64,000 nt of DNA from Marsupella aquatica (taxonomy: Eukaryota > Plantae > Marchantiophyta). Both the position numbers and the translations under genes were made by a program. The DNA is taken from the NCBI GenBank assembly GCA_973895155.1, contig OZ316891.1, positions 21,752,513 through 21,816,512 of the forward strand. Direction: 5' to 3'. This document shows, in pieces, positions 23,459 through 56,432 of the stretch (its first letter is position 1; each line of letters opens with the position of its first letter). The notes beneath the pieces are model-generated. The model was not told the origin of the DNA, made no database searches, and was given only the letters and a program-made list of their open reading frames with translations.

Positions 23459-23486
23459 CCCTAAACCCTAAACCCTAAACCCTAAA
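23459..23486 (+). repeat. Interstitial plant telomere repeat (CCCTAAA)4
   Basis: Four perfect copies. Confidence 0.9.
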
Positions 23487-29400: not shown

Positions 29401-30099
29401 GAGCACATGATGAAGTGTGATCTTGGATGTGTTTGGCAGTCTAGGAAGGTGGATCGCGCTACCCCTTCTCATCTCAATAACTGGCCTAAACGTGGCATAT
29501 ATCCCTTTTTCTAATCCCCATCAGCGCGGAGTTGTTGAGGCTTGAGCTGGTCTGAGCAGGGTTGCTGAGCTAACTTGAAGTGCACTTGATCATAGGTAAC
29601 CTGCCCTCAATCTCTGTAGTCCAGAGTGTGCTGAAGATTGCCATAGCAAGATTTGTCCTATTGTGCTTGACTATTCCTAAAGGTCATTTTATGTTCATTA
29701 ACAATAACCAAAGTCTAAACTTGGAGGTCACAACTAAAAGTTTATGGAGGATTGTAATATCCCCTTCTTCCCACAATCCTAACTCAATCCATGAATCCTT
29801 CAAGTAAGTTGTTACGGACTATACACCTTATCAAAGAAATCATCCCTGAGGCCAGCAGCTAAGTCGTTACGGCCAGTGCATTTCCTGAATCCGTTCCATG
29901 TTGTGGAGTCCCAATAAAATCACTCCACTCCTAAGTCAGCTATCATTCCAGCAATCCCACTTTATGAAATGGATTGCATTTTATCCCTACCAGCTCAAAC
30001 CATGATGTGCAATTCAACTGTCTCTCACATCGTGTCCCCTTGGCCTCTCTGTGGTCAACTGAGCTAGCCTTCCTTTGAGGCAATACATTTATCAATTGC

Positions 30100-31000: not shown

Positions 31001-31190
31001 CTACATTTTGCCAGAATCCAAACTACTCTATGCTGTCCCTGGGAGAAAATTAAGTCAAACATTTCAAAATATCTGGTTTCTTTGAACATTCAACATGTTC
31101 TTTAAAGAATATCCTTGACACATCTTGCCGACAGTATTCTTATGATCAAATTTGTTTTTGTTGTGAAGCAGAGCGAGAACGCACATAGTC

Positions 31191-34100: not shown

Positions 34101-36660
34101 AGTTCTTTTCTTCCACAAACAAGTTTAATCATGATCAGCCTGAAGAAGCATCATGTGAACTTCGAAGTATTTTAGAGAAAAATATTGCCAGATTGATGAA
34201 GTATAATTTGGCCAAGAAGAATATGAGAGAGGACATTATTGAGCTTTGCAAAGATACCTTACACCTTGGTGAAAGTAGTATTGCTCGTGTGATCAAGGAA
34301 TATGGATTGGGCAACATTCCTGAATCAGATGACAAAGTCTACGAAATGCCAACCAATGTTCCTACTGATCCACTTGGAGGTTAATATGACTACCATTTGT
34401 TATAAACTACCATATTCAATAGCTAATGATGAATTAAGTAGCCAAACTTGTCATATGCCAGATATGAATCATGAATTATAAATCGATGTTCTCAAGAGAA
34501 TGATGTACATGATTTGATATAGAATGATTGATTGATGAAAATATTAGAATGAACCATGGTTGGAACAAGTTGGATGTGTGAAGTTAGATAAATTTATCAA
34601 GACAATATAGAACCTATTATTTGGTATAGTCCAAACATTTCAAATGGATAATAATTCCAACTAGAGTTGAAGCAAATACTAATACGAACTGAACAACCCA
34701 ATCATAGTTTTAACTTGTCAAATGAATCGCTTAAATTCTATAAATAGATTAACTTACTCTGGAATTTTGTGAAAAATTAGATTAGTACTTAACATAATAT
34801 AGAAAACACTTGTCTAATACATCATGTAGTCATTGAAATTAGGCAAAGCAAACTAATAGCGATATTTAATAAATAAAAATAATTAGAAGTTTATTGGTTC
34901 ACCATATTTATCTATTGTTTGTTGTTTTGGTTGTAGGAGATGAAACCAATTCTATTGAGGACGAGAACAAGGATGAGGACGAAGAGGATAACATTGATTC
35001 CCCGAATGCTTGGCAGCCACTAAAGTTGGATCACGTGGAATCACCAAATGATTCAATGGAAATTCTTGACTCGTTCAGGGCTTTCCAAACCGAACCAGAG
35101 CTCAATGTCGAGGAACAAGGAGTTTCAATGACCAAAGGAAGATGCCCTACCTCAAATCTAAATGCAAAGAATGTTAAAAATATCCAATCAAATTGTAGCC
35201 GTGCTGGGGTGCAAGAATCAAATCAAAGAAACAAAAATGAAGTGGCATTTGATGAAACCAAAAGTAAAAATGAGCGAAGAATGATTGTCCGCAAATTTGT
35301 GTGGGAAAATTATATTCCTGATCAGGAAACCAGTTGCCCAGATCACATTTCTACAATAGATTGGGATGAGTTCTTTCGAAGCGAAGCTCAATTTCATGGG
35401 TGGAAAGCAAGAGCATATTGGCATGAAGCTTTGACTCATCGCTCCGGTTTGGAAACCCCTGAACAAATCACTAATTTACAAGATAATGTCTATTATGCAA
35501 CAGAAGTATGTGAAATGGTTGGAGATCCTCCTATTGATGTTTTTGCCATTCAAAGTGAACCTAAAAGCACTATTAACAAATGGACTTGGATGAAGGAGTA
35601 TCAACTAATCTCCAACCCTATCACTAACTCTATAGATACACCCGTGTCTAATCTTAATGATGCTACACTAGATACATGTGCAGTTTATCAAAGTGATTAT
35701 GAACAAGCAATCATCCAAGATTTGGGTGTGAAGAGAGATGATTCTTTCATTCCAAACGAGGAAACAATAAGAGACAATGCTTTGGTCGTGAATCCAATGG
35801 TGGAGCAGATGGATCCTTTACTGGTTGAAACTAACATTTTGGGCACGTCTCCCATATCGACAGAGCAAGTAAATGTTGATGGTGATCCAGTGGAGAAGAA
35901 AATGGATCCTTCAATGGTTGAAACTAACATTTTGGACGTGCCTCCCACATCGACAGAGTCAAGAAATGCTAACAACAACCTAGCAAGGGAGCAGATGGAT
36001 CCTCTAGTGGTTGAGACTAACATTTTGGATGTGCGTCCCACATCAACAGAGCCAATAAATGCTAACAATAACCTAGCAAGGGAGCAGATGGATCCTCTAG
36101 TGGTTGAGGCTAATATTTTGGATGAGCCTTTCACATTGACAAAGCCAAGAAATGTTGACAGCAACCTAGCAAGGGAGCAAATGGATCCTCTAGAGACAAG
36201 AAATGTTGAAATCAATGCACAAGTGGATCCTGTTATGATTTTGGCCGAAAAACCAAAGGTGTCTCACACATCGATGGACCCTAAAACAAATGAGAGTGAT
36301 TTGTTGGTAGATAGTGAAGAACATCCTTGGATCCAACAAGCCACTAACCTTGAAGATCAAGACATACCGGAGGTGGGAAAAATTGCGCCTTGGGAAGAGG
36401 AAGCATCTGCTGCAGCCTACGCTGATGGATTGAATGAATTACCACCTCCTTTTTTGGGGATCCCATTAGTTTCAACTTCTCATGGAGATTGTTCACAAAC
36501 GACTCCGGCAACAAGAATGGAGCTTCCTAAGACTGGTTCCAAGGTCATTCCAGGTCGTGCCACTCGACGGGATTCAAAGAGACCCTCGGTGATAGAAAAA
36601 GTTACTATGCTGCCAAAGGTGAAGAAGACACCTCAGCAGATTTTGCGCAACAAGAAGTAA
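31191..36660 (+). pseudogene. Element A cargo gene: NLS, ParB-like domain, degenerate amino-MTase-like fold, acidic/repeat tail (4 exons)
   Basis: KKKRK/KKRK NLS; YHFWIIGGQHTVIAY; FIFLDATM...EKSKSFYDNLTSQLV...CFGDGRHLIHSLL|NLGA; donors at 32469, 33942 and ~34380; premature TGA at 33180 (Arg in the paralog); homologous to 49229-44450. Confidence 0.75.
35803..36192 (+). repeat. Coding tandem repeat, 93 bp (31 aa) x ~4
   Basis: EQMDPLVVETNILDVPPTSTESRNANNNLAR-like units. Confidence 0.9.
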
Positions 36661-36778
36661 TGATTTTATTTTGACTATACTTAAAATGTATAATGTTTTT
36701 CATAGTGCTATAAATTGTTTGATTGTTTAGGTGCAATCTGAGCCCAAACCAGCAAATTGGTCATAATGGTTGTGAATA

Positions 36779-37589
36779 GTGTATAGTATCAAGGAAACTT
36801 ACCCATTATGGTTGCAAAAGTCATTGCAACAAGATAAGAGGGAACACTTCCAAATATGGATCAATACTCAGTATATTCGTGATCATGGAGATAGAAATCA
36901 TTCAAGGAGATTCCATGTGTTTAATAATCAGGGTACATTTTGGACTACTTATCACACTTATTTGTAGAATGAACCATGGTGCATAGTTAATTTATGACAT
37001 ATTTTTGGGTACTATTCTAAATCTCATCTGTGTGTGTTGTGTACAGGTGAGAGTTGAAAAATTATTCAGGAAATTACTTGTCATAAGTATCAACAAGTTC
37101 CTCATTTACACAACTGGGGTCTCTCGTCATTTGAAGAAGACATCATCTTTCCGAGTTTATAACAAAATGATCTTTCCGAGACCATATGTACAAGAATTTC
37201 TTGAATTTTGCACTTCAACTTTTGATGTGGTTCTTTGGGCACTCACTGACACATGCAAACTGGCTGATCAAATGGATCCAATACTCACAGATAAAGCTTT
37301 GAGTTTTTCTGGTCTTAAGTATCTTACATCAACTTTGATGGACATGAAACAGATCAATGATATTTATCCACAATATCAAAGACAAAATGTTATATTTTTA
37401 GAGTGTTATCCATCATTTGATAGTGTAAATCCAATGTATTCAAGGCTGTATCCCAAGCCGTATTATGGTAATTGTAAAGACAATTTTCTTAGAGGCACAC
37501 TTATTCCATATTTACATAATCTAGAAGATTCTGGTCAGACAGCGCATAAGTTTATTAAATATCACTATCCTACTTGGTCTGAAGTATGA
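36779..37589 (+). CDS. FCP1/SCP (NIF)-like HAD domain exon (37047-37589) plus a C-terminal remnant of a second one (36779-36920)
   Basis: KLLVISINKFL...FPRPYVQEFLEFC...FDVVLW...DNFLRGTLIPYL; catalytic DxD replaced by SIN. Confidence 0.75.
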
Positions 37590-38759
37590 GACAGTATCAA
37601 TAGAAATGTAGTAAAAGAAACCACAGCTTGTGTGGTGTAGTGTTTAGAATATATTCAAATGTATTCTTTTTGGATAATAAAAGTTACATTATTTACGTGA
37701 AAAATTGAAATGATTGATTACTGCATTATATATTCATGAATGATTACTTGTAATGTTCATTTTACTTCATAATGTCGAATGCCAAAATGTCTACTTGTAG
37801 AGCAAAAATTCTATTCTTGAACTCAGTTTTGGCAGCACCCGATAATACTTGTAAATTCAGTCTTTATATTCATAGTGTCTGATGCGAAAATAGATACACA
37901 TAGTATAAAACTTGTCATTTTGTAGAGATCTACTAGTGTTAAATGCAAAAAATTTGGCTTAAGTTTCTTTTAGGCCCTTGGAACTTATTGAGTATTATAG
38001 CCAATATTAATTCTCAAATTCAGTAGATACCAATTTAAATGAAAACTTTTTGTTTACTCACTATCAGTGTATTGCATTGAATATGCATTTCACCAACAAA
38101 TTAGAATACGAACCATGGTTTATTGTATGTTTTGACACTTAATTTGGTTTACTTCTTTTTTTGTTTGGGGAGGGGGGGGGAATAAAACCCGCAAAAACCC
38201 ATGGGAAGGGGGGCCCAACAGGGCAACAAAGACAGAGGCAGCAAAATGCAAACCTATGAGATGGAGAGAGAGCCCCAATGAGCAAGGACAAAAAAAGATG
38301 CGGTCCATGCAAGCAAGGAAAGACACAATCCAAAAGAAAAGTGTCCAAGCGTGTGACCCACCTAAGATGTTCCTGACTAACTAATTCTTTTACTCTAAGT
38401 AATCTAGTATGTTTTCTACCAAGACCCGAGGCTTTGCAGAGGCCATGCAAAGAGTCTAACATTTATGAAAGGAGTAGATTCAAGTTAAACACTCAATTTG
38501 GTTTACTTTGTTTAAATTGTTCCTATCACATGTGACTGAACTTGGATCCATCAGGTTTTTGTTGATGTCCTGGAGCATACCATACTTTCAAACTAGAGGA
38601 AAAGAGTTAATACAATGGGGGAAAATGGAAGTCTTGGACACTTCCCCCTTATATATGGCCCGTGGTGGTTTAAATTTATTTATTTATTTATTTAAATGAA
38701 TTAAATAAATCAGTAATATCTTTGTAAAACTTCATTTAAGCATTTATGGAATTGAAAAT

Positions 38760-38783
38760 TCCACTTTTATCTAAATAAGGGTT
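38760..38783 (-). repeat. Element A right TIR
   Basis: Reverse complement AACCCTTATTTAGATAAAAGTGGA, 22/24 identical to the left TIR. Confidence 0.9.
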
Positions 38784-39107: not shown

Positions 39108-39115
39108 ATTTATCA

Positions 39116-40592: not shown

Positions 40593-40864
40593 TTATAACC
40601 CCAATTTAAGGAAAACCAAACTTTGGAAATTCCGAAAATAACTAAATATTATTATTTTAATAAAAAAGGGGCGACATGACGCGTGGCTGCGCGTGAAACC
40701 CTGAAAATGACTGCAACGTCACATTTTAACCAATCCAACTTGACGGGACCAAGAGACATGCTCACGCGAATAATAGTAATAGAGAAATAAATCTTTGAGA
40801 TCCTTTATATATGATAATCAGTATATAAGGAGTTTACAAATGGTTTCTAGAACGACAATACAAA

Positions 40865-41600
40865 TTAATTTGATCTCATGCCGACTATTATTTTGGAAGC
40901 GTCCAAAATTGGGCGTCTGTTAAATTGCTCTACTAGATATCTATCTCCATGCCTCAAAATCACAGGGTCTTCCCATAGAGTATGATTATAATCATAATCT
41001 CTAAAAATATATTTAACTGACCAATTAGGATAATCTCTTCCATTGGCAATGACAAGCGGCTCACAAGAGTTTGCTAGCTTGCTAAGATACGGAATCAGCA
41101 AGTTAATCAGGAAACTGTCGTCGACCGACCCAAAATATTTGGGCGGAAATAATGATCCAACAACAGGATCTAAACAAGCATGAAATGCATCGGATTCGAT
41201 AAGCATTATATTTTGCTACAGATATGCCTTCGTATAAATTCCAACCTTCTCAAAACACTTCAAAAATATCCGCTTATTTGATGTCACCCCATCGCATAAG
41301 TAACAATGAGACTGATCCCAAATATACTTAAATGAGGCCATTTCCATCGCAGTAAAAATAGATGCTAAAATTTGATCTAAAAGGTTCTTCCCAAGAGAGG
41401 ACCAGATCCCTACATCGAAATTCTCAAAACAAAATCTCAAGAATTCATGAAGATGAGGCCTTGGAAAAACGTATATATTCCCATCTGAATTCCAGTTGAG
41501 ACCGCCATCAGTCGGGAATGCGGTGCAGTGTAATAGAGTATATGCTCCATGTCTAAAACTATGAGCCCAGGCATTTTCTTTGCTGCAATGAATCTCCTGT
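40865..41600 (-). pseudogene. FCP1-like HAD domain #3 (element B)
   Basis: LIVLDMEHIL...FPRPHLHEFLRFCFENFDVGIWSS...DDSFLINLLIPYL; frameshift, and TAG at 41216. Confidence 0.8.
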
Positions 41601-41682
41601 AGAGAAACACAAGAAGATGCATGAGCCCGTATGGATGTAGTCACGCGAATGGTCGCGTCACATATTACAGAGACAACATCCT

Positions 41683-42390
41683 CTACACTCTGGCCATTGA
41701 TAAGTGACGTCTGTTGAAGTGCTTGATAAGAACTTGATTCGCATGTCTCTGCACGTACAGATTCTCCCATATATCCTCGTTCAGATCCCAATCTCGATGT
41801 AGATTTCTAATCGACCAGATGGGATAATCAAACTTGTTAGCAAACGCAAGACAAAGCCCTGAATTTGATAGCTTTTGTAAATATGGAATGAGGTCATCCC
41901 TCAAAAAGACATCATCCAACGATCATTGAAACGACTTAGCGAACAATAATCCGCATACAGCTGTCTGGCATGTATGGGAAGGATAGGCATCAATTTGGAT
42001 TATATTCTCTGGTTGATAATCTTGAAACATATCATGTAGTCTCTCGATAGATTTGAAGACAACAGTCTTATAATTTTTCTTCACATAACCAAGATTCCAA
42101 CAATGATCCTACGTGAACACATATATCAACTGCGACAGGTCGGTGCTCGACAACACTTCTGAAAGTATCTAATAAACCAGTTTATCATTGAGAATAGACC
42201 AGACCATCACATCAAAATGATCATAACAGAATTTTATAAGATCATGAAGATGCGGCTTCGGAACGACACATAGAGATCTGATACGAATTCCGGGTGTTGA
42301 CTTGAGCTGAGGAGTATATTTTGAAACAGAGCACAGGAAGTTTGCCAGTCCTAAAACCAGAAGTTGACGCGACCTGCTCCACTTAGACAC
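41683..42390 (-). pseudogene. FCP1-like HAD domain #2 (element B)
   Basis: QLLVLGLANFL...PKPHLHDLIKFCYDHFDVMVWS...DDVFLRDDLIPYL; in-frame stops. Confidence 0.8.
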
Positions 42391-42521
42391 CTATAAATGA
42401 ACAATTCGATTCTCATATTATGCAATTGCAAACAACCACGCGATCGGGCGCGTCACTCCCAAAATATAAAGTTCAATTTCAATCAATTTATAAATAATAA
42501 TTGATAATAAACAATAAATGT

Positions 42522-43292
42522 TTACTTATTGGACTTATCCCGGGCTTCTATAGCATGGTCTTTTTCGGCAGATAAGTATTTCATAAATTTGTCAAACTTT
42601 TCTAAATGGTCTTTATTCCCCTGATTACGAATGATCACATTTCTCCTCCAAAGATTTGTCTTATCAATATAATCTTTCTCAAGATTTTCTTGAGAGAACG
42701 TTGGAATCCCATATCCACTAAGGAGCTCGCGGAATGTCAACTTGTCAATTGACATGTCGCATAGATATGTATATAGTTTCTTTCTAAAAAATAGGTCATC
42801 ATCGAGCCCAGAATATGCATCGGGATACAGCGATGAATAGAAGTCATTAAGGCTCGTCTTATATGCAGCATCATCGATAAGAATGACATTCTCGATGTTG
42901 TAATCTTTAATATTGGCGGCAATGTTGGAGAGACATTTGACAAATAAGGGGATGTCATTATTATTCTTCCCAATAAGTCGAGTTGATTCTTGTCCCCATA
43001 TAAATTTAATACGTTTCAAAACTTCGGGTCGAAGTATCAGCCTTACACAAGATAGAATATTTCGTTTGAACATGCACGACCAGATCGCAATGTCGTATAG
43101 ATCTACCACCTTCTCAAGAAATTCCATTAAATCAGGCCTTGGATAGATAACCTTGTGCATCTGTCTCACACCCCTTGACCGAATGGGCATCCCAGGGCTG
43201 ATCTTCTCTGACCAGATAAGTACCCGATTCAGATCAAAAATTACAAGTCTCTTTTGAACCGGTGACTTCTTTGCCGATGGATTAGGCGCCAT
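42522..43292 (-). CDS. FCP1/SCP (NIF)-like HAD domain #1 (element B)
   Basis: KRLVIFDLNRVL...YPRPDLMEFL...YDIAIWS...NVILIDDAAYKT; the exon probably starts at 43427, spliced in frame to ULP1. Confidence 0.85.
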   Translation of the reverse strand: MAPNPSAKKSPVQKRLVIFDLNRVLIWSEKISPGMPIRSRGVRQMHKVIYPRPDLMEFLEKVVDLYDIAIWSCMFKRNILSCVRLILRPEVLKRIKFIWGQESTRLIGKNNNDIPLFVKCLSNIAANIKDYNIENVILIDDAAYKTSLNDFYSSLYPDAYSGLDDDLFFRKKLYTYLCDMSIDKLTFRELLSGYGIPTFSQENLEKDYIDKTNLWRRNVIIRNQGNKDHLEKFDKFMKYLSAEKDHAIEARDKSNK

Positions 43293-43513
43293 CCGTACCT
43301 GTGATTTTTGTGCCGCAGGGTTTGGAGAACGTACTAGAACGGTCTATTTGTTTCCCGCCTCCGGACGATCACCGGACTTCCGGACTGGTGCCTTCGATAC
43401 TCGATCAGGGGGTTTCGGGATAGGCTTCTGTAAAACATTAAGAAATGAAAATAAGTTTATAACGTGAACGGTCGCATGACTACAAAGGAAGACACTAAAA
43501 TGAAGTGTATTAC

Positions 43514-44303
43514 CTGTACAAGACGGTTGTTCAGTGCTGGAATTCCGCCGGAAATGTCAATCATAGCAGCACGGATCCCGGTAACTAGGTTACTTGCGGA
43601 TGTTGGCTTGCGGAAGTCCATGTCAAATAACGACAAGACTATCTCCCTACGAAATTTCTCAATTTGATCCAAGGAAAAATTAATTCTGTTTCCTTGACAC
43701 AAGCACTTGGCGTATCTCAAGATAAACACACCACAACTGTGGCCGTCACTCTGGTGAGGAATATCATTCCGATATATCCGTTCCCAACCTGAGAGATCCA
43801 AGTTGACACCAGTTCTCCAGCCAATTTTGTCGGCGTAGTACTTCCCAACAATATCTAGCACCCCAGGATTTTGTTGATTATGAACTAGAGAATCTAGGTA
43901 CCCGAGCCGTTTCTCCTTCGGATACACAACTACCAATGACCAATGTTCTTTCACAGCATTGTGTACTGAAAAGACCAGTTTGTCGTATTCACTGATTTTT
44001 AGCGGAAACTCCTTTGTCCAAGCTGCTCTCTCCTCATCGAAAATGGTAGGATCCATGGAGAGAAGCTCAAAATGGTGTGTTTGGAAGAATTTGACAAGGT
44101 CTGACTTTCCAACTCTATCGAGAATCAGTTTGAGAAAACTCAAATAAGCGTTAATTATATCATCGGTGAGCAACTCGCGCGGTCTTAGACACATCATATG
44201 TTTCCTCTTGATCGAGTGTTGTAAGAACTTGGTCAATAGCTCTTCCATATCCTTAGAAGGATCAAGGCATTGATCTATTCGACTAGCCAAATTTTCAAAA
44301 AAC
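43514..44303 (-). CDS. ULP1-like SUMO protease (peptidase C48) domain exon
   Basis: LLTDDIINAYL, EHWSLVV, YLDSL, QSDGHSCGVF: intact His-Asp-Gln-Cys catalytic residues. Confidence 0.92.
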
Positions 44304-44449
44304 TGTAAAAAACAGAGATTTCAGTACGCCTTCAAATAACGTACTGAGGTTGTAGCCTAAGGGTTCTACCTCAAAAAACAGAAACAATAACAAATCAATA
44401 ATAAAATAATGACGTCTATAATAGAAACTTTAAGCTTATAGCTTGCGAA

Positions 44450-47400
44450 TGACCTTTGGATTGGGTGGATCCGGCCTTTTTGCAGCTGATCTCTTGGGTG
44501 CCTCAATCGCAACAACATCCTTCAGCCCTCCTCGAGACCGCAGTGATCGCTCCACCGGACCAGTTTGCGAAGGTTGGAGCGATGAGGCGGGAAGACCTTC
44601 AAATGGTTGTGGCATTTGATTCAAATATTCCACAATCTGGGAATCCGATTCCAAAATATCCGGTGCCACAATTTCTGCGCGAGTGACCTGTGCAATATAT
44701 CAGGGTCAAGACCACGAACCCGGTCGTGTCAAGTCAGCTGTTAGTATCTTAACGACTTGAGCCGAGTCTGGTGCCAAAGACGTTCCCAGGTCTTGCACTC
44801 GATTCTCAAAAAAGCGGACATTATTGATGATTGTCTCCATTCTGGATGTGCAGTGGTAGTCTTCTCCTCGGTAATCAAAAGACCCTTCCAATATTGCAAA
44901 GCAAGGACTGCCTGGACTCGGAGCTGCTCCGGTGAATATTTATTCCAATCATCCAATGAGACCGTACTTAAGGGTGGATCGTTAAATTCAAACTCCGGGC
45001 GAAGAAAATAGTCTAATATTTTCTTCTTAACTGCAACTGAGGGTGAAGAAGGCTCCTTCAAATTTAGCTTTATTTTTGGTAGATGTTGTGCCTCAGGAAT
45101 AAGCGAAAGATCCTTAGCCCTCTCGGCCTCCTTCCTCGCTGCCTCCAGTCTTGCGGCTTCTTCTCTCTCCAGTCTTGCGGAATTGACCTTTTCCGCCTCC
45201 AACTTCTCCGCCTCCACCCTCTTCGGTCTTGCGGTCTCGTCCGCCATCCTCTCGGCCAGCAGCCTCTCAGCCGCCACACTCTCCGCCTTGGCCCTATTTG
45301 CCTCTGTCACTAAAAGGACTCTCGTAGCCTCCGCTTTCTCAGCCTGGGCTTTCTTCGCCTCCGCTTTCTCAGCCTCGGCTTTCTCAGCCTCGGCTTTCTT
45401 TGCCTGGGCTTTCTCAGCCTGGGCTTTCTCAGCCTGGGCTTTCTCAGCCTGGGCTTTCTCAGCCTCGGCATTCTCAGCCTCGGCTTTCTCCTTCTTCTTT
45501 GCGGCAGTTGCTTTTCTAGCTACCGCCTTTTTCTTCTTAGCCTCCTTCTTTTGAAGCTCCTCTTGTCGGGCCGCCTCTTGTCGGGCCGCCTCTTGTCGGG
45601 ATGCCTCCTCTTGTCGGGCCGCCTCCTGCCGGGCCTCCTCCTGTCGGGCCGCCTCCTCCTGCCGGGCCGCCTCTTTTTTTTGAAGCTCCTCTTGCCGGGC
45701 CGCCTCCTGCCGGGCCTCCTCCAGCCGGGCCTCCTCCTCCTACCGGGCCGCCTCCTCTCGGTCCACCTCATGTCGAGGCTCATGTGTGGCCTCTTCATCA
45801 GAGTCTCAGCGTCCTCAGAACCCTCCATCTCCTCGTCCTCTTCATCAGCATCCTCAGCGTCCTTCATCTCCTCTCCGTCACTCTCTTCATCTCCTCTATT
45901 ATCGGAATCTCCGACGTCGTTCTGCGTATCGGTCATCCACTCTAGATCTTGGTCATTGACATCCCCATCCGCGTCACCTTCCGTGTCACCTTCCCCCTCA
46001 CCATCCGCATCACCATTGCTCCCTGCATCCTCAACATTGAAGCCGCAGTCGACTTGATCTTAATAAAATCAGATCATTTGATAAGAATGACTCACGCGCA
46101 TATTCGCGTGAAAAGAAATGTTAAGAATGTCCACGCGCATGTTCGCATGATGCAATAAAAAGTAAGAGGTTTCAAAAGTAACCTATCTTGGATTGGCCCA
46201 CTAGGGTACTCCGTTGGTCGAATGTACAATCGATCGGAATCTTCAGAGAGTGCATACTCTTGCAATAATTGATTACAAATATTATCAGGGATATGTTGTT
46301 CGTGGAGGACATCCAAAACATCAGCCCTGAGAGCAGTTACGGATGGACGGTACTTCATTAATTTATCTATACATTTTTCTATACTAGCCCGTACTGGGTC
46401 AATCAATGACAGCGTTGTATCAATTGTCACCGTGGTGTGTTGCAAGAAACAAGACAACTCCCTATGCATTGCCACAAGGCAGTAATATTTTACATTGGAT
46501 CCAGCATCCTGTAAAAAAAGCCAAAATTAGTTCACAATATTAATTGAGAATATAATAATCTAAATAATCTTAAAATCGAAACCCCAAAATATAAATCTCA
46601 AAACTTACCATCAAGCACTGGATCAAGTTCGTTCCCTCACCGAAGCATAGAGCCCATTCCCCACATTGGACGAATTGACTAACAATACTTTCAAAGAATG
46701 GAAGTATCTTTTCTGGGGAAGGTGTCGTGAACTCGCCGCTCTCTTCAAGATTGGCTATCTTCTCAATCCGATATTTGGAGACCAATTGGAACTCGAGGGC
46801 TTGTGGATCGCCCATTGTGTTGAAGGCCAAGCTGTGAAAAGCGTAGGTTACAATAAGCTTCTTCTCCTTCGGCCGCTTCTAAATATAATGGCTATCGACA
46901 GCAACGTAGTGTGTGTACTTCCCTAATTCCCATTTGATTAAGTAAGACTCAATGGGAGAGGCTACAATAATAACCACATGGTGTGGTTTTGCCCCTATCT
47001 CGCTAGTAGCACGAAATAACCCCTCATAGAATGAGCAATTTGGCGCACGCAAATCTCCCATTGATGAGGGATCAAAATAAATCAAGCTCGCAAGGTTCTT
47101 GTCTTCACGTATGATACAATCCGCAAACCCAGCATTTTGTATATCCTACAGGGATCGCAATTTCAGCCTCTCACCAACCGGCCGCACTAGTTGGTTTCCT
47201 TGACTATCAACTGATTTATGTATTCCTTCCACCAACCTGTAGAATATCGGGTCGATCTCTTTCAACAAATTATCATTATTAATATTTACATTTAAGCACT
47301 TCTTCAGATAACCACTCAACGCATCTCTCAACTGCTTCAACACCATCTTGTCGAGCTTAAAGCGATCAATCATTCCTTTGACCCGCAATTTCCGCGCTGA

Positions 47401-49229
47401 ATCTGTCAGACTTTTCAGCTCCGTCCGGGTGGATGTATTCCCGTTGAGTTTACTCAATAATAAAATCTCAAACTCAACTTTCGTCTTCTTCTTTATACAT
47501 AATTGCTCCAAACTCATGCTAGTCGTTGACAACATTGGAGCCTCAGAGGACTTCCTCGCCTTCCCAGATTTCACTTTGATGCTTTGGTTTTTGAGTATAG
47601 ACAGTCTTCCGCTCAACATATATTCTGTTGCCTTTCGAAGAACCGAGTTTGAGCACCCTTGACAAGAATGGAACGTCTTCTTCAGAAAGATGATAAGCAC
47701 ATGGATTATCCGCAATTTTGACGGCGTCCCTCTGTAAAATTCCGTTGTAAATTACAAGCTCTCCTGTCCTTGATAGTTTGTAGACCTCCATCCACTTCTT
47801 GAATGTTTTGTCCTCCATGTAAAGAGAAACAGAGCCAATTCTCCAAATTTCATCATTTCGTTCATCCCCATTTGAGCCCATGGGCAAACAAAACTCTAGC
47901 TCTCATAAATACCTGAAAAACAATGGAAACATGACAATTCTAAGATTGACGCGACCGTTCGCATGAGAAAAATTCTAAGCTTGACGCGACCGTTCGCGTG
48001 ACAAAAGTTTAAATGATAATGTGATCGAAGAGGATTATTTATATACCTTCCAATTTGGATGATGATAATGTGATCCAGGCCGCCCAAATGAGTTCCAGAT
48101 ATTACGACACTGTTGTACAATGGTGAGAAACTGTCCTTCCATTGATGTTTGATGACAGTGGTTCAGAGCTTTCGATAATCCCATCAAATGAACATTATTG
48201 TCGTTGTTGAGCGTTGCCCAAAACATTACAGCTTCTACAGTACCGCAAGCGTCTCGTACAACTTGGCTGACTTTGTCGTCCTCTTTCAATCAGCAATTTG
48301 TACGCCATTATTGTGTGCTGGCCTCCGAGTATCCAAAAATGACTGGTCATAATGTCCTCCTCCTTTGGCGCCGAATCGTAGGGCGCCCCATTGTAGTCAA
48401 GATCTCTGTCGGCCTCCGACTGAACCCACTTCACAGGGACTAAAAAGCAGCATCGCTTTTCAAACTTTATAGTCGAATGAGAGAGGAGTGAATTCTTTAG
48501 CCTACCTGTGTAATCATGATTCCACTCTCGGCACTTGATATGGTCCGGTGCAAGATGACAACGTGATGTCTCAACAAAAAATGACTTGCTGTTAAATATA
48601 TTCACAGCACTATATTCTTTGAGGAAAGAATCGAATAGAGCCCCGACATTCGCTGAGGTAATTACTTTCGGAAGATTCTTCGCCGAGTATACTTTAACCT
48701 TGGTCACTGGCGGGGCCTTTCCCAAGCGAAATCCCTGGTTGAAAGGAACTCTCTAGAACTCAAGTACGTCAATAATGTATTGACAAATCAAATCTCCCGT
48801 TGATCCCTCTGGATCGGAAGGATATCCCACACTAGTAACCTTTTCCAAGGCGTGCCTTGCATCTAGAAGATCATCGATTTTGGACTGATTGAAGGTTACG
48901 TATTGCGTTTGATCCAAACAAATGCTTATTTTGTCCTCTTGCTGGTCGTCGCTAACTAGCAGAACCAATCCCTCTGTACACTCTTTAACTTTCATGTTCT
49001 TCTCAAAGAAACACCCAAGAATTTGTGATCTCTCCAAAACTGTAGCTTTATCATTTTTTGCCACCACAAGACGGACAACCTCATTGCGAACAACTATTCC
49101 AAAATCGGATATCTCAGTCGATTCAAAGAGATGGATACTCTTTGTCTCCGTTGTTCTCTCTCTGATTGACTTTCCTCGATATGCTTTAGATGAATCTCTT
49201 TTCCGCTTTGAAGTTCCGGTAGGATCCAT
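44450..49229 (-). pseudogene. Element B cargo gene: ParB-like, amino-MTase-like, acidic and EK/AR coiled-coil regions (continues into ULP1)
   Basis: HFWILGGQHTIMAY; LIYFDPSS...PSPEKILPFFESIVSQFVQCGEWALCFGEGTNLIQCLM|DAG; in-frame TAGs at 48753, 47146 and 46879 plus frameshifts; collinear with 31191-35500. Confidence 0.78.
45300..45760 (-). repeat. Coding low-complexity repeats (15-bp AEKAE/Q and 18-bp EEAARQ units)
   Basis: GCTTTCTCAGCCTGG and GCCTCTTGTCGGGCC arrays; minus strand reads EEAARQ and AEKAQA. Confidence 0.85.
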
Positions 49230-49304
49230 TCTGAAATAGACAAATATTGAAAGTTAAACGTTTATTATAAAATACTAACACGCGCATGGTCGCGTCGTGC
49301 CGAA

Positions 49305-49780
49305 TTACATTTTAGGAACGTTTATCTTGACCCAATCTTCTCGCTCATCTTCATCTAACCAAAACCAAAGGTTCCTAAATGTGTCAAGTTTAGATCCTTC
49401 AAATCCACCCAGAATGTCCAGTGGCGGGAGAGTTCTGATGGATTCTGTAAATCTGAATGCTACACTCCGTGAAGGCAAATGCCTTTGAAGCGATTCATAT
49501 CCTGGTCTATCAGTGAAGTCGTAAGCTACCAAGGTGACCGTCGCCCAAGTACTACTATAAGTAACTATGTGGCACCACTCCTTACTAACTGTTCGAATGG
49601 CGATCAAGTCCATGACCCGATTTTTAATCGCATTATCCGAAGACAGTGGAAAAACTCTTTGACTAATGGCCAAATATATTTCTCGACAATATCGTCCGGA
49701 AGACCGGGTATCAGGTCTTCAGCTTGACTCCATATCATGTTTTGGTTCATAACCTTTGCACGTGCAATGCGCTCCATCAT
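49305..49780 (-). pseudogene. F-box-like unit 3
   Basis: LIPGLPDDIVEKYIWP...LIAIRTVSKEWCHIV, with a frameshift. Confidence 0.6.
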
Positions 49781-49889
49781 CATTTGATGATGAGATTTCG
49801 ATTCATGTCAAAGGACTGCAACATAATATGGAAAATATTAAGAACAAGAACCTATCCATTAAGAACTGGGACCACCTAGATTCTGAGAA

Positions 49890-50425
49890 AATCTACCAAA
49901 CCTTTTGATTAGAACATCTCGTTCTTCCTCATCTAAATAGTTATATTTGTTCGTAAACAATAAGATTTTGTCAGAAGTAGTAGTCCCAAGAACAAATATT
50001 TCTGGAAGCATAGAAATATCTTGTCAAATAACTCGACAGATTGAGTCAAACTCCAACTCGTCAGTTTCAGGTATGTAGTAAAGTGCTTCATTTGCGTCAT
50101 CGACAATCCGGTTTGCTTGTTTGAGGATAGCCCATAACCTTGTATTTGTAACTAAAAAGTTCCACTTCTTGCTACAAGCTCCAAGCTGAATAAGGTCTCG
50201 GACCCTATCGATAACCAAATCGTTATCGGGGTGTCGATATCGACGCAATCCTTCAATTGAAATAAAGTGTTTGTAGAGTATTGGCCAAATGTTTGAAATG
50301 ACCAAAACATCTGGTATTCCTCCAATGAGACTAGAGGAGGTTTCATCCAGCGTATCCCATATTGTTTTCTGTTTCCTTTCATGAGATGAAAGGAAATCTC
50401 GAGCCTCATTCAAAAGTTGGCTCAT
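49890..50425 (-). pseudogene. F-box-like unit 2
   Basis: LIGGIPDVLVISNIWP...LGACSKKWNFLV; stop at 50024 with homology continuing beyond it. Confidence 0.6.
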
Positions 50426-50490
50426 CCTGCTTTTATCATATCACAAAACATTGTTAGAAGACATATGATGCGCTTGGTCACATAAGTTAA

Positions 50491-51042
50491 CTAGAATTCC
50501 TTAAAAGCGTAGATGTCACCCTCAAGGTATCCAACTTTGTGGCATCTGACTATAAATTTCCATTTTTCAAGAGGGTGAAGAGCATCGTAAGTCTTCGTGA
50601 AGAGTTCCCTAAGATCTCTGGACATTGACCCCATGAATTTAATTCTTGGGTATTTCTGGAAGAAACTTTGAACTGTCGATGAGAGAGACTCATTTCCGAT
50701 CGGTTTAGTAGGATTTCCTGGGAAAGCCAAATCTAATAAACTCAACTTGATTACACCCAGAAGATAGGTATTCCCAACAAGGTGGCGCCATCTGCGACAC
50801 ACCGAAGATAGTCCTACAAACTCATCCAATTCCTTTATTGAGAAATTTCTTGCATTAGCCAAGGAATTAAAAGACTCCTTGATCCGAGGCCATATCAATT
50901 CTGCGACAATGAAATTTGGAAGTCTAGGTAGTAGTATTTCAACAAATACAGAATATACCGCCAGTAGACCATCTTGGCTTCTGTCCAAAACGTTAAATAT
51001 TGGGCATAGATATCTGAAGCTCTCCAGACCAGGTTTGCCCAT
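50491..51042 (-). CDS. F-box-like unit 1
   Basis: LLPRLPNFIVAELIWPRI...LSSVCRRWRHLV. Confidence 0.65.
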   Translation of the reverse strand: MGKPGLESFRYLCPIFNVLDRSQDGLLAVYSVFVEILLPRLPNFIVAELIWPRIKESFNSLANARNFSIKELDEFVGLSSVCRRWRHLVGNTYLLGVIKLSLLDLAFPGNPTKPIGNESLSSTVQSFFQKYPRIKFMGSMSRDLRELFTKTYDALHPLEKWKFIVRCHKVGYLEGDIYAFKEF

Positions 51043-51183
51043 GACTCTTTTCAGCCAAATGATATATCCCAGAGATTATTTTCACGCGACTGGTCGCGTC
51101 TACAAATCAGAATGTATAAACAATTCTTTGAGAGACTGTGATTTTGTCGGGTCACAACGTGACAAATCATAAATGTTGCTTCG

Positions 51184-51910
51184 TCCTCTAACAGAACCAG
51201 TCAATGAGAGAGCTACCTCAGACGCGATTGGTCGCGTCAACTGATCCTAAATGGAAGAGTACCTCCTCTAACAAAACCAGTCAATGAGAGATCTACCTCA
51301 GACGCGACTGGTCGCGTTAACTGATCCTAAATGAAACCTTACCTCCTCTAACAAAACCAGTCAATGAGAGATCTACCTCAAACGTGACTAGTCGCGTCAA
51401 CTGGTCCTAAAAGGAACCTTACCTTCTCTAACAAAACCAGTCAATGAGAGAGCTACCTTAGATGCGACTGGTCGCATCAACTGAACCTAAACAACTATAT
51501 TCACTGAACCTTCCTTGTGGAGATTTGGATATGGTACGCGCTCAGTAAATCTATCTAGTTTCCTTCTCACATGCGACTGGTCGCGTCAACTGATCCTAAA
51601 AGGAACCTTACCTCCTCTAACAGAACCAGTCAATGAGAGAGCTACCTCAGACGCGACTGGTCACGTCAACTGAACCTAAACAACTATATCCACTTAACCT
51701 TCCTAGTGGAGATTTGGATATGGTATGCGCTCAGTAAATCTATCCTGTTTCCTTCTCACACGCGATTGGTCGCGTCAACTGGTCCTAAAAGGAACCTTAC
51801 CTCCTCTAACAGAACCAGTCAATGAGAGAGCTACCTCAGACGCGACTGGTCACGTCAACTGATCCTAAATGGAACCTGACAATCTTTTCACGCGACTGGT
51901 CGCGTCAACA
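51184..51910. repeat. ~80-bp tandem array carrying the element-B palindrome ACGCGACTGGTCGCGT
   Basis: Unit CCTCTAACAAAACCAGTCAATGAGAGAGCTACCTCAGACGCGACTGGTCGCGTCAACTGATCCTAAA; palindromes at about 51222, 51302, 51382, 51462, 51571, 51651, 51760, 51840, 51890. Confidence 0.9.
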
Positions 51911-51943
51911 GCTCAAACAACTTTTGGACACTATGATAATACA

Positions 51944-54095
51944 GTGATACAACTGTGATTACTGACCCGTATGGACAAGGACATCCGAGTAAGCATGATT
52001 TCATTCATTGGTATTCATTCATTGGTATTCATTCATTTATATTCATTCATGAACTTTACAATAATTCAGATGTTTGAGCTCTGTCATTGTGAAACTATTA
52101 TATATCAAAAGTTTAGAGAATGATTCAGCAAAGATGATTCAATTTAGCAATCTACTGGTTGTATTCGTCAATTAAAGGATTCAGGGTAATGAGATTCACA
52201 TAACATGAGAGTTTATATGATTAAATTCACAGCGTGCAAGTTTGTGATGACTTACTTAAGACGATTCAGGTTGTATTTTAATTAGTGAGTTTGTATGATT
52301 CAGACATATTTGAGTTTATAGACAAATCGCATTATGAAAACTCAGCTTAACAATCAAGAGAAATTTTAGCAAACAACAATCAAGAGAAATTTTAGCAAAC
52401 AACAATCAACACCAACAGAAAATGTAGAAATTGCACCTGAATTCTGAAAAATTGATGTAATCGTCTGAGAGATTGACGTCCAAGCACTTGAAGACCTTGT
52501 TGCGGCATTCCAGAAAGTAAATATAAGATTGAAGATATTGATATGCTAAGCAACAACAACACAGCTTCTATACTTCTATACATAGAGCTTCGCTGCCACC
52601 AATTGAATAACATGTGCTTAATGCTAAGGAACTCATTATGTTGAGTTAAAAGACTCTTTCAAAAGTACAATCAAAGTTGTCGATAGACAAACTGAGCATG
52701 AATAAAAGCGCACTAAACCTGAAGATTGAAAGAGGTGAAACAAACCTGAATGATGAATGGAAGGAGCTGAAACAAGCTACCAAAAAGTAGTTCGAGCTAC
52801 TGAAACACGTTGATCGAGCTGATATGAGCTTAAAATTGGCTGACACGAGCTGATACGAGCACTCCCAAAAAACTAGTTGCATCAAACCCAATGGGCTCCT
52901 AAGAATCCCTTCGAGCAAACTAGAAGTGAATACGAGCTGTAAATGCGAGCTGCAACGCGCCAACGAGCTCCTGGTTGAAACGATCGACAACTACTAAGAG
53001 CTGCAACACGCCGACAAGCACCTGACCACAATGAACGAGCTGCAACGACAAAAATGAAATCCAGGGCAGGAGCGAGAGCGAGAGCAACGAGAGCGAGAGC
53101 AACGAGAGCGAGAGCAACGAGAGCGAGAGCAACGAGAGCGAGAGCAATGAGAGCGAGAGCGACGAGAGCAATGAGAGCGAGAGCAACGAGAGCGACGAGA
53201 GCGAGAGCAAGAGCAAGAGCGAGAGCGAGAGCAAGAGCAAGAGCAAGAGCGAGAGCAAGAGCGAGAGCGAGAGCGAGAGCGAGAGCGAGAGCGAGAGCGA
53301 GAGCGAGAGCAAGAGCGAGAGTGAGAGCGAGAGCAACGAGAGTGACAAGAGCGAGAGCGAGAGCGACGAGAGCGACAAGAGTGAGAACGAGAGGGAGTGC
53401 AACGAGAGCGAGAGTGATGAGAGCGAGAATGAGAGCGAGAGCGACGAGAGCAAGAGCGAGAGCGACGAGAGTAGGCACGCAAAAGTCTAGGGAGCGAGAA
53501 ACAACAACAATGAACAGTGAACTCGAGACCGTGGGCGCCGACACTAAGGAAGGACTAATTAGGGTATTGTTTTAGCATAACCCTAATAACAGCCTAGCAA
53601 CAGGAAGGTTCCAGATGATCTCCGTACACTCCACCATCGACTCAACAAACTATGCAATCGTGAAAAAAAGATTACCGGATTCCTTTTGATTTGCCGTACT
53701 AAAGGAGATTTCTATTTGATCGCCAATTTGAAATTTAAACCGGTAATTATGCAACTGTGAAAGATTGTTAGTGGGAACCCCCGGATCCGTATCTTCACTA
53801 TATCTGCCAATTCAAATCCAAAATGTGAACGAACAACAACTTTCTCACGATCGTTCCATCACGTAGTGGAGGCAAACTTCAAAATCATTCCATTTTGGTA
53901 GTGGAGACCATCGGATCCGGATCCATACTCCACTCTCTATCTTGCCAATTCAAACCCAAACTCTAAACAACGTAAAACGATTCTCACGGTCGGGGAGAAC
54001 CAATATTCAAAATCAATCCTGTACAATGATTTTCACGACTGGAGACTCAAGCAATTTTCAAAATCAAAATTGAGTCCAGATGAACACATCCTTCA
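51944..54095 (-). mobile_element. Truncated LTR-retrotransposon 5' region (LTR ~53545-54095, PBS-like site ~53530-53540)
   Basis: TAAGGA...TCCTTCA termini; minus-strand CGGCGCCCACGG is PBS-like; no coding remains recognised. Confidence 0.4.
53070..53472. repeat. (GAGAGC/GCGAGA)n microsatellite
   Basis: ~400 bp of hexamer-based repeat, which produces the poly-RA/LA/LS ORFs. Confidence 0.95.
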
Positions 54096-54415
54096 TGGAG
54101 TCAATAGACTGATCTCATTGCTCACGGATCATTCTTCATTTTCAGTTTCTCCTGACCAGGATACTAGCTGGGCTCTCAGCGGAGGCTGATCCAAGGCACA
54201 TTTGAGGTGGAGCAGATTGGATCATTCGACTATTCCAGTCGGAGGCGGAGCTCATTCAAGCAACGCTGGCGTAGTTCTTGTTGTATCACCTTCAATCTTG
54301 GGGAGAGCACATCTGATCAAGCGGGAGAGTTGTGACGAAGCGAGACGACAAAGATTTAGAACCTCCATAGTCTGCCTCATTCATCGAAGCATTCTAGCGG
54401 ACCAACAAAGAGCGG

Positions 54416-56286
54416 CTATTCTGAAATCAAAGACCCTAGCATCTGTGGTCTAGGGATCTTCTCCGCATTCACTTGATACACTTCACAGTCCACACTGGCT
54501 TGAGAAACAATTGAACCTTCTCCATCTTCATCAACATCAGAAAAAACCTCCATTCCCAAGGCATGAGGTCCTTCCTTGTAAAATCGTTTTTGTTTCACCT
54601 TTGCAAGTAATGCATCTTGAGCCTTGGAGTTCATGCAAGCAAAAAACTCCTCATTGGTGACTCCGCTCACCTCCGTTTTCCAAAACTTCTCAGCAACTTG
54701 ATCATACGCAATGTGCTGCTCAACATCTCTTCCAAGGACTCAACCAGGTCCTTTTTTTTCCACTTTCTCTTTTTTACCACTTCCATCTCCTTTGAGGATG
54801 AAGGAGTCAAAGTAGGCTCCTTTGTTGTACTTCCTCTATCTTCAAATCGAACACTCCTCCTTGTTGGGACTCTTGATGATGACTGCAAAATAGAGGGTCC
54901 AGGCTCAACCTTCTGTTTTCCTTTGGCACGTTCTTCCAAAGGTTCTGACGACTTTCGTTTCTCCTCCACCATAGAATCCCATAGAGATCCCACTTCTGCA
55001 GTGAAAGAAGAGATCAACACTGGATCACTCCAACCTGACTTTCTCCTTACAAACTCTGCTAGTCTCTTCTTGTCTGTCTATGTTGATGAAGAACTCCCAA
55101 AGAAGGTGTAAACATCTGCTTCATGCTCATCCTGATCTCCAAAAGCTGCTGCAATGGCTGAAGTATGATGTTCAGTCATTCTTCTCTCCACCAACACCTT
55201 CATACCGCCCTTGTTTGTATTTACTGGAATAAGCTCTCCTGAATCATGATAAGCAAGCTTTCTTATGCCATCATGATCAATGAACTTGACTATTCTCTCT
55301 CTCAGAGCAATAGAAAGCTCCTCGCATTCACGCCTTGAGTGCTCGTTACTATCACACCAAATACAATTCCAACTCCTTGCTCCGCCAATGGAACTCCCGG
55401 CTCCTGGACCACCTCTTGGTGCTGGTCTCGATGCACCTCCTCCCATCTACTCGAAGGCTTGGGTGGCAAGAATGGTAAGATTTTTCATGAGTTCAGACAA
55501 CTCATCCATTTTGTCCATGCTTTTCTCACCCATACCAGTTGTTGACTCCATTTGCTCCATTCTCCTCATAGAAGTCATAGGTGCAACCGCATCTAGAGCA
55601 CCTTCATGACTCAACTTCTTTCTTCTATGCTTTTGGCTGACCCTAAGCACAGCAATTTCAATCTCCTCCCAAGTTGGTGGACTGGCTCCACGATTTGGGT
55701 TCATCAATTCTAGAGCAAGCTCCAACTCGTCTTGAAGCTTCTCATCAGTAGCTCGGATAAGTAAAGTAGCCTTCTATACCTTGATAACTTCATAACCAAT
55801 CTCAAGAAGCTGATTGAACTTCTTTGTAAACTCCCTTATCAGCTCTTGAGGTCCCAACTTCTTGTTTTTATTGGCCACCCAATCAAGGAAAGATGCTTGA
55901 GTAACCCGATCTGGATCTTCAAGCTGAAATTCTTCTTTCATTTTTAACTCAAAGACTTTTCATGCCTTCTCTCCAGTAGCTCCATCTATCAAGGTAGTAA
56001 CAATTTCCTTGAGTTCAGGTTCTACTAAAGATACAAACTCCTTGATTGCAACTTCTACATCAATCTTATGAATTGTAGCCTCCGTCCAGTATCCCTTGAG
56101 ATACTTGGTTACATTCCGCCCATCAAATTCTCCTTGCTTGGTAAGAACCGAGTGTAGGTACTTTGTGGTCCTACCAAGCAACTCCTTCTTGTTCTCCTCC
56201 ATCTCCTTCTCCTTCATTCCATGTAAGTAAGTAGCAATCAAAGATGAAAACCTCTCCATGTTAGTTGGATTCATCTCAGTTTCCAT
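54416..56286 (-). pseudogene. Ty3/Gypsy gag (bryophyte-type), degenerate
   Basis: FDGRNVTKYLKGY, MKEEFQLED, zinc knuckle CIWCDSNEHSRREC; in-frame stops. Confidence 0.85.
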
Positions 56287-56432
56287 GATTGCAATTCTTC
56301 CCTCTTGACTTAGTAATATAAATAATTTAAGGACTCAAAGTTCCAAAAACATATCTCTTTCCATCTATTAGAACTTAAACATACACAAGCTAACTTCAAA
56401 ATCCAGCGGTTTCCCAGTATGGTCGCCACTTA

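Follow-up and report, generated by a model that had tools for sequence, protein, structure and literature searches.

A decayed multi-domain accessory gene, predicted to bind and shield its own element, in a giant TIR transposon of the liverwort Marsupella aquatica

Element B, in a window of 64,000 nucleotides from Marsupella aquatica (the whole stretch that was analysed; contig OZ316891.1, positions 21,752,513 to 21,816,512 of the forward strand), is best explained, with a probability that we put near one half, as carrying, in decayed form, a single predicted large accessory gene of a giant TIR transposon, whose intact product would have bound the element's own 16-bp palindromes and shielded the element from silencing, as a VANC-like or ParB/parS-like module. 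In the mechanism that we propose, nine exons would splice into one protein of ~2,450 aa. Its ParB-fold and dead-methyltransferase half, common to the neighboring element A, would read the palindrome as ParB reads parS, and the coiled coil would dimerise or space the modules. At the element, ULP1 would strip SUMO from proteins of chromatin or of the silencing machinery, and the catalytically decayed NIF domains would serve as binding modules for partners. The active lineage would therefore have stayed CG-unmethylated and kept its CpGs, and the dead copy would have been methylated since and decayed.

The gene is predicted on the minus strand (Table 1). Read from the N-terminus, it encodes a PH-like domain, a ParB/Srx fold, a putative degenerate methyltransferase fold, a coiled coil, ULP1, and three FCP1/NIF domains. 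A first-pass annotation had read the region as one multi-domain gene divided by short AT-rich GT-AG introns, and this one-gene architecture is plausible. All eight modeled introns are GT-AG and 69-152 nt long, although two lack AT-richness (0.52 and 0.53). Six of the eight joins are in phase 0; at intron 7 the frame is preserved only if an alternative acceptor is used, and at intron 3 it is lost. The spliced homologs P0024, P0020, and P0032 agree with the intron-1 join. The proposed splice from the LVQ end of the ULP1 exon (GT donor at 43513) to KPIPKP was borne out, being a phase-0 join across an 86-nt GT-AG intron, and the join to NIF 2 is indeed less clean, as the obvious acceptor at 42391 is out of frame and those at 42377 or 42374 are in frame.

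Table 1. Features of the window; exons and introns follow the predicted gene model of element B.
Feature	Position	Strand	Details
Element A, complete TIR element, 26.3 kb	12489..38783	.	24-nt TIRs (22/24), 4-bp TSD GAGT
DUF7869 transposase of element A	12974-16783	-	DUF7869 match
ParB-MTase-repeat-NIF gene of element A	31167-37589	+	Homologous to B gene
Left terminus of element B (TIR-like)	40597..40620	+	7/24 mismatches to A's left TIR, 4/24 to element C's left end
CpG-rich island matching element B	40600..54400	.	Sharp, 14-kb; edges near 40600 and 54400
Exon 9: NIF domain 3 (motif DME, shifted frame)	40865..41596	-	TAG at 41218; end at TAA 40865-40867
Intron 8	41597..41688	-	Palindrome B at 41643; phase-0 join
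Exon 8: NIF domain 2 (motif I lost)	41689..42373	-	3 stops
Intron 7	42374..42525	-	Palindrome B at 42438; in frame with acceptor 42374 or 42377
Exon 7: Pro/Lys linker and NIF domain 1 (motif DLN)	42526..43427	-	TAG at 43344-43346
Intron 6	43428..43513	-	Palindrome B at 43462
Exon 6: ULP1/Peptidase_C48	43514..44302	-	Open frame, triad intact
Exon 5: linker	44454..44687	-	Phase-0 join; intron 4 removal takes out two TGA
Intron 4, 69 nt	44688-44756	-	4-mismatch palindrome-like site inside
Exon 4: acidic stretch and EAARQ/AEKAE coiled-coil repeats	44757..46058	-	TAG at 45742, switches near 45810 and 44847
Intron 3	46059..46182	-	Palindrome B twice (46094, 46133); out-of-frame join in this copy
Exon 3: end of MTase-like region	46183..46508	-	Phase-0 join; no Pfam match
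Intron 2	46509-46608	-	Palindrome-free
Exon 2: helical region and degenerate methyltransferase-like domain	46609..47912	-	2 TAG, 3 frame switches
Intron 1	47913..48046	-	Palindrome B twice (47949, 47984)
Exon 1: PH-like and ParB/Srx-fold domain (GGQHT motif)	48047..49229	-	TAG at 48755, frame switch near 48288
Second cargo: three F-box-like ORF pieces, upstream of large gene	49308..51075	-	F-box E 0.004-0.02, under Pfam cut-off
Tandem array, 80/189-nt units, ten palindrome B copies	51084..51905	.	Repeat and motif scans
Decayed low-complexity, coiled-coil-like ORF, pointing away from array	52400..53500	+	Six-frame translation; no Pfam match
LTR-retrotransposon fragment, right boundary of B	54419..57500	-	Gag-like ORFs, PBS-like site near 56420, high-depth LTR-like end

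It is conceivable, though very unlikely, that the region instead comprises two or more separate genes (ParB-MTase-coil, ULP1-NIF1, and NIF2-NIF3) with no single fused effector. The out-of-frame intron 3 would suit such a division, as would exon 7, which meets a TAA at the intron-7 donor and could end naturally at 42525. Moreover, searches for a full-length homolog found, among longer proteins, none of 5,975 candidates with the element A ParB query and two of 1,544 with the ULP1 exon, both Ulp1-RT retroelement proteins, and an exon-2 profile found one of 6,406, namely the Calypogeia protein itself; no loci in metagenome or viral contigs were obtained. However, the gaps between coding blocks are no longer than the introns given above, seven of the eight can be joined in frame, and element A connects the same N-terminal half to one NIF domain in the same order.

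This copy of B is dead, far from near-intact. The single TAG reported earlier at 43344 is present, but it is one of nine premature stops, and frame switches number about eight. Related contigs lack most of the frame shifts and carry a 2-nt indel at 44847; since the family does not share most of the frame switches seen here, the frames were kept in the source. Relative to this copy, 265 of the 442 places at which run X1 differs are T>C or A>G, and among the listed X1 differences 30 of 36 fall in a CG/CHG context, against a 35% background. CG>TG changes also mark the array motifs of palindrome B. By these substitution patterns, this copy is itself methylation-decayed, a point against the shielding reading.

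B has its N-terminal half in common with A, at 37-44% identity over exon 1 (E 8e-70) and 30% over exon 2 (E 2e-29). Its ParB and methyltransferase domains, both named in the first-pass annotation, have no Pfam support in B but are predicted as folds in the element-A homolog, on models of which the assignments were made with modest scores. For the ParB part of that homolog (pLDDT 79.5), every one of Foldseek ranks 1-12 is a ParB, Noc, Srx, or PadC structure (prob 0.97-1.0, E about 0.015), and the top eight VIA rows are ParB/Srx-like (Z 4.8-8.0; KorB Z 8.0, PadC Z 7.8), with PH folds at Z 4-4.8 for residues 50-200. Its Atlas neighbors are DUF3723 clusters at 0.95, although the corresponding profile, PF12520, gives no HMM match. 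The NTP-binding Arg of the P-motif GxxR is replaced by Thr, and GGQHT is invariant in all eight rows. The ParB/Srx fold is a nucleotide-binding module, not the sequence reader, and no HTH that might read the palindrome is apparent in the modeled parts of the ParB-MTase half; this and the lost Arg speak against palindrome reading by that half. The methyltransferase-like part found no match in sequence searches of Pfam, PHROGs, NCBIfam, or the PDB, nor a usable one in Atlas; its low-confidence model (pLDDT 40) retrieves CcrM first in Foldseek (prob 0.99, E 6e-3), among mostly SAM methyltransferases. Beta-class N6A/N4C DNA methyltransferases carry the catalytic motif (D/N/S)PP(Y/F); at the presumed DPPY position B reads FDPS, A reads LDAT, and the Calypogeia protein reads FYAS, and the motif is thus lost.

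The ULP1 exon is recognized by PF02902 (E 8.9e-18, 65.4 bits against a cut-off of 20.7). It aligns to SENP1 (E 6e-17) with His, Asp, Cys, and the oxyanion Gln in place, confirming that the catalytic residues are intact, and with Leu for the Trp of the SENP1 WLNDE motif; it is thus a candidate deSUMOylase. Diverged contigs cover the exon and bridge both flanking introns, so that ULP1 is a family trait of B, connected to both neighboring exons. Of FCP1-like domains, two had been claimed and are present, but the number is three, all NIF domains above the PF03031 cut-off (E 2e-10, 1.8e-7, and 3.1e-12 for NIF 1, 2, and 3). The catalytic motif of FCP1/SCP enzymes is DxDx(T/V), and motif I has decayed in all three (DLN, LGL, DME). 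The only PDB match of NIF 1 is UBLCP1 (E 0.0017), and subfamily profiles give HAD-IIID at E 1.6e-4 versus FCP1_euk at E 0.027, all far under cut-off. With decayed motifs and best matches to UBLCP1 and HAD-IIID rather than FCP1/SCP, the suggestion that these domains are CTD-interacting is unsupported. NIF 2 is the nearest of the three to the single NIF domain of A (E 7e-24).

Element A supplies the natural comparison. Its TIRs and 4-bp TSD would suit a Sola1-type transposon, yet GAGT differs from the AWWT hallmark; the GHT motif of its transposase may be a Sola1 likeness. As the first-pass annotation had it, A is without ULP1 (best tblastn E 0.99) and has a 31-aa repeat in the corresponding region (93 nt, 4.2 copies, 35802-36193). 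The modular difference between A and B is therefore real, but whether it arose by exchange is another matter, as one pair cannot tell gain from loss. Element B is a truncated, multi-copy relative of A; its own transposase is not in the window, and a single end of it was found here. That left edge coincides with a jump in CpG o/e in the 200-bp bin from 40600 and with a depth increase, seen in each of the four runs, from the 40136 bin to the 40670 bin; the F-box-like pieces show the same raised depth and CpG content as the rest of B. On the right, the LTR-retrotransposon fragment has a CpG o/e of 0.31 and a depth peak at 56014-57516; its gag and PBS assignments are presumptive, made by motif likeness, and its gag-like ORFs have no Pfam match. 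B itself is unlikely to be an LTR retrotransposon, given eight sense-strand introns and a TIR-like end; a second LTR is absent from the window and the CpG content breaks at the gag boundary. The transposase at 61332-64000 was rejected as the driver of B, for it belongs to a separate element with its own left end at 60512, which a low-depth gap separates from B and which is CpG-poor and without motif B.

Each element carries its own palindrome, restricted to its non-coding DNA. Palindrome B (16 bp, 6-N4-6, at most two mismatches) has 19 matches, all at 40679-51890 inside B and none elsewhere in the 64 kb, as compared to 0.125 expected in B and 0-3 in 15 whole-window shuffles; because the motifs were chosen by eye from the same sequence, these shuffle figures are optimistic. 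Within the gene, all seven matches fall in introns, which make up about 10% of it. The palindrome of A has 15 exact matches, all inside A (0.08 expected) and none in its coding blocks. A family-specific palindrome in non-coding DNA and tandem repeats corresponds to the VANC-type motif layout. Could the palindromes instead be sites for a transposition helper, in the way that CACTA TnpA binds element ends? Such a protein, possibly acting as a ParB clamp, would pair the ends of a 25-kb element or autoregulate its genes, with ULP1 acting on transpososome or repair proteins and CpG richness as a side effect. We consider this rather unlikely. It would accommodate the clusters of motifs just upstream of the cargo gene in both A and B, as well as the fact that A has motifs and the ParB half without CpG protection. 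There is also precedent for it: a role in transposition has been suggested for the Ulp1 that TEs commonly capture (PMC2836005), and DUF3723, a cargo gene conserved in Starships, has been compared to DNA translocation modules (10.1101/2021.12.13.472469). Yet the motifs are scattered in introns rather than concentrated at the ends, and the match of the CpG island to the edges of B is left unexplained.

That island is the second support for self-targeted DNA binding by the B protein, which, together with the intronic element-specific palindromes, makes such binding likely. CpG o/e is 0.78-1.14 in the nine 1.5-kb bins from 40501 to 54000 and at most 0.65 in the other 33 bins; it is 0.80 in B exons versus 0.39 in coding DNA of the remaining TEs in the window (Fisher p 3e-8), and, over homologous exons, 0.83 in B versus 0.45 in A (p 0.005). 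Element A carries that ParB-MTase half too, along with palindromes of its own, and is still CpG-depleted; binding is therefore not enough for protection, and what links CpG retention to ULP1/NIF is this one A/B pair. Alternatively, the CpG richness may reflect a recent arrival of B from a lineage or host in which CG methylation is low, its domains being a capture mosaic with no targeted anti-silencing role. CpG retention in one element only, the frequency of ULP1 capture by TEs, and the decayed catalytic motifs of the NIF and MTase domains are compatible with this idea, which we nonetheless regard as quite unlikely: the termini, gene layout, and intron positions of B are those of the CpG-poor A in the same window, the source kept its reading frames, and two distinct element-specific palindromes require a reader.

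If the accessory gene did shield its element, a broader scenario could be entertained, possible though doubtful, in which giant DUF7869 transposons of bryophytes independently made a VANC-like system from a phage-type ParB-methyltransferase, with a parS-like palindrome of its own in the introns of each family, and in which one family, having gained a SUMO protease and three NIF domains, escaped CG methylation long enough for a 14-kb CpG island. The candidate effector has a recognizable SUMO protease, a readable target motif, a fossil methylation signal, and, in element A of the same genome, a natural control, features that make the question of SUMO and silencing directly testable, and it might yield sequence-specific tools for epigenome editing.

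Outside subscription journals and Repbase, we found no literature on DUF7869, and searches combining ParB, liverwort, DNA transposon, and accessory gene returned solely the Bostrychia paper and no description of the B family. Phage ParB-N6N4-methyltransferase fusions and ParB/parS systems place a ParB fold before a methyltransferase fold, as is predicted for B, and use palindromic sites (10.1101/2025.10.10.680097), whereas in B GxxR reads GQHT, DPPY is lost, and PH-like, ULP1, and NIF domains and spliceosomal introns are present. DUF3723 of fungal Starships is also conserved cargo of giant eukaryotic elements and provides the Atlas clusters nearest to the ParB part (10.1101/2021.12.13.472469), but B has no PF12520 HMM match and Starships move by tyrosine recombinase. 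Mutator and Ginger1 elements carry a captured Ulp1 catalytic domain on a DNA transposon (PMC2836005); in B it forms part of an accessory gene with a ParB fold and is neither attached to a transposase nor on its own. Red-algal Plavaka elements, with the accessory genes PAG2/PAG3, are giant DNA transposons that pair a ParB-domain gene with inverted-repeat arrays and carry an N6A-MTase-type gene; self-modification was proposed for them (10.1101/2025.02.11.637652). In those EnSpm elements, however, one gene joins ParB to a 2OG oxygenase and another joins the MTase to SET, whereas in B a single predicted gene combines ParB with a decayed MTase, ULP1, and three NIF domains, and motifs occur in introns as well. 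The Arabidopsis Mutator system VANDAL/VANC likewise combines a TE accessory gene with a short family-specific motif that occurs in introns, between genes, and in tandem repeats, related families having different motifs (PMC5735166). It differs in that the related element A has a DUF7869 transposase and a 4-bp TSD, that the predicted B product is a ParB-fold protein with enzyme domains, and that the palindromes are 16 bp long, as against asymmetric VANC motifs of 8-9 bp.

The element B cargo gene (minus strand) is modelled as nine exons running from 49229 to 40865, about 2,450 codons long (the segment sum of 2,489 includes overlaps). The exons are interrupted by eight GT-AG introns, each between 69 and 152 nt long, six of which join in phase 0. 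The first-pass annotation had spliced LVQ in frame to KPIPKP, and that join is phase 0; it had also called the join into the second FCP1-like (NIF) domain less clean, and intron 7 is indeed in frame solely with acceptors 42377 or 42374. The intron 3 join is out of frame in the B copy, and three spliced homologs (P0024, P0020, P0032) continue through the intron-1 position. Pfam matches both the ULP1 SUMO-protease and NIF domains, the latter numbering three instead of two (stops translated as X). Aligned to SENP1, ULP1 retains its triad and oxyanion Gln, as proposed, and has Leu in place of the Trp of WLNDE. The suggested link of NIF to the polymerase CTD is unsupported, because motif I has decayed and the domains are closer to UBLCP1/HAD-IIID than to FCP1. 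Element A, the comparator transposon, does lack ULP1 and does carry a repeat (93 nt), and diverged contigs (records 21 and 25) connect ULP1 with its neighbouring exons, so ULP1 is a family trait. That the region instead holds separate genes is quite improbable, the out-of-frame intron 3 notwithstanding.

This copy is not near-intact. Where a single TAG was noted earlier, premature stops number nine (eight TAG and one TGA), and the frame switches about eight times. In four public DNA runs, contigs span all of the B stretch at raised depth (in one run, X1, 430-490 vs 15 and 9 in two exact-match flanking contigs); contig depth is not a copy number, and we call B multi-copy and no more. At least six frame switches (41568, 44847, 47686, 47817, 47896, 48286) carry frame-changing indels in related contigs, from 12 of 56 indel rows. 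In X1, T>C or A>G accounts for 265 of the 442 sites that differ, and 55 go the other way; among the rows listed, leaving out those outside B, 30 of 36 such changes lie in CG or CHG context (background 35%). From this excess and its context, the B copy, judged by sequence, is dead and has since decayed through methylation-type C>T change. Insertions of 4 nt relative to related contigs at 41568, 48286 and 62953, the TSD size of this element type, are possibly excision footprints.

Exon 1 has no Pfam match and 30 relatives. A structure model of its element-A homolog (28 alignment rows, pLDDT 79.5) matches ParB, Noc, KorB, PadC and sulfiredoxin (E near 0.015, Z no higher than 8.0), preceded by a PH-like fold (Z 4-4.8) that had escaped earlier notice. 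The Atlas places the ParB part near DUF3723 (0.95), present in 78% and 31% of the members of two clusters; DUF3723 is described as a conserved Starship cargo gene (10.1101/2021.12.13.472469). The P-motif reads GGQHT, without the Arg that NTP binding by ParB folds requires (10.1101/2025.10.10.680097). The adjoining MTase-like assignment gains nothing from HMM searches; with a low-confidence model (pLDDT 40), CcrM still comes first among hits that are mostly SAM methyltransferases. The catalytic motif has been lost.

Palindrome B, a 6-N4-6 motif, has 19 matches in the window (<=2 mismatches), all from 40679 to 51890, with 0.125 expected in B; shuffle figures for this and element A's motif are too favourable because both were picked by eye from the same sequence. 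All seven intragenic matches are intronic (821 bp across the seven introns modelled at that stage vs 7,544 bp of exon), five of the eight final introns contain the motif, and ten copies form a tandem array upstream of the gene. Element A's different palindrome has 15 exact matches, all within A and none in coding blocks, likewise clustered upstream of its cargo gene. We give a probability of about 0.5 to the B product being a self-targeting anti-silencing protein, whose ParB/dead-MTase half would read the palindrome while ULP1 would strip SUMO from silencing factors at the element. Against this count that element A has reader and motifs yet lacks CpG protection, that methylation acted on the B copy, motifs included, once it was dead, and that models of the ParB and MTase-like parts reveal no HTH. 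A transposition or autoregulation helper is a less probable alternative.

CpG observed/expected reaches 0.78-1.14 in the nine bins that span 40501-54000 and does not exceed 0.65 in any of the window's other 33, the island's edges coinciding with the B terminus and the gag boundary. B exons stand at 0.80 and the remaining TE coding DNA at 0.39 (p 3e-8), and homologous exons at 0.83 in B vs 0.45 in A (p 0.005). Because A's reading frames are more intact than B's, copy age does not explain the contrast; this one A/B comparison suggests that it reflects the B lineage's past. Recent transfer out of a weakly methylating host would give an identical CpG picture; neutral domain capture with recent arrival seems unlikely to us. 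TTTAGGG arrays in the window are plant-like, and the only named cargo homolog is from the liverwort Calypogeia fissa (one named plant record among 10 clusters looked up), which makes a bryophyte host likely.

Element A has a DUF7869 transposase and a nearly intact, homologous ParB-MTase-NIF cargo gene; the roughly 13 kb between them hold duplications (19265-22102) and telomere-like arrays. Its nearest superfamily would be Sola1, by the 4-bp TSD and a transposase motif that we take to be Sola1-like, the TSD differing from the AWWT hallmark. Element B's left terminus (40597) resembles A's; its right end and transposase are absent from the window. A transposase at 61332-64000 was considered for B and rejected, having its own left end beyond a low-depth gap. 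In that element, C, a 6-N4-6 palindrome at 60970, 3' of the transposase, has 4 mismatches to motif B, and contigs show a duplication there. Joints that jump over 63172-63478 and 59142-59443, sharing 5-8 letters, point to a TSD of 8 bp for the MITE. The broken ORF outside B is probably another repeat into which B inserted; were the F-box-like repeats true F-boxes, B would carry, with ULP1, two ubiquitin-family modules.

Elements and repeats in the window
Feature	Coordinates	Strand	Remarks
Element A, complete	12489-38783		26.3 kb; TIRs alike at 22/24; TSD GAGT both sides
Element B right limit	about 54400		start of LTR-retrotransposon fragment
Element C, third DUF7869 element	60512-64000		own left end
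MITE, ~300 bp	38843-39108, 59143-59443, 59877-60158, 63181-63477		very high-copy
F-box-like repeats, three	49308-51075		weak; upstream of B cargo gene
Broken ORF	39996-40331	-	directly outside B left end; raised depth; no Pfam match
LTR retrotransposon, 5' part	54419-57500		no pol, no second LTR within the window
Tandem array, 175 nt	446-1603		outside A and B
Tandem array, 147-157 nt	39193-39794		outside A and B

This set of domains, the element that carries it and the pairing of palindrome with CpG evidence did not turn up in searches of the literature outside subscription journals and Repbase. Each ingredient has a precedent. These are VANC (PMC5735166), Plavaka PAG2/PAG3 (10.1101/2025.02.11.637652), phage ParB-MTase fusions (10.1101/2025.10.10.680097) and ULP1 carried by Mutator and Ginger1 (PMC2836005). 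Layouts like those of the A and B palindromes are described both for VANC target motifs (PMC5735166) and for red-algal Plavaka, with inverted-repeat arrays beside ParB genes (10.1101/2025.02.11.637652).
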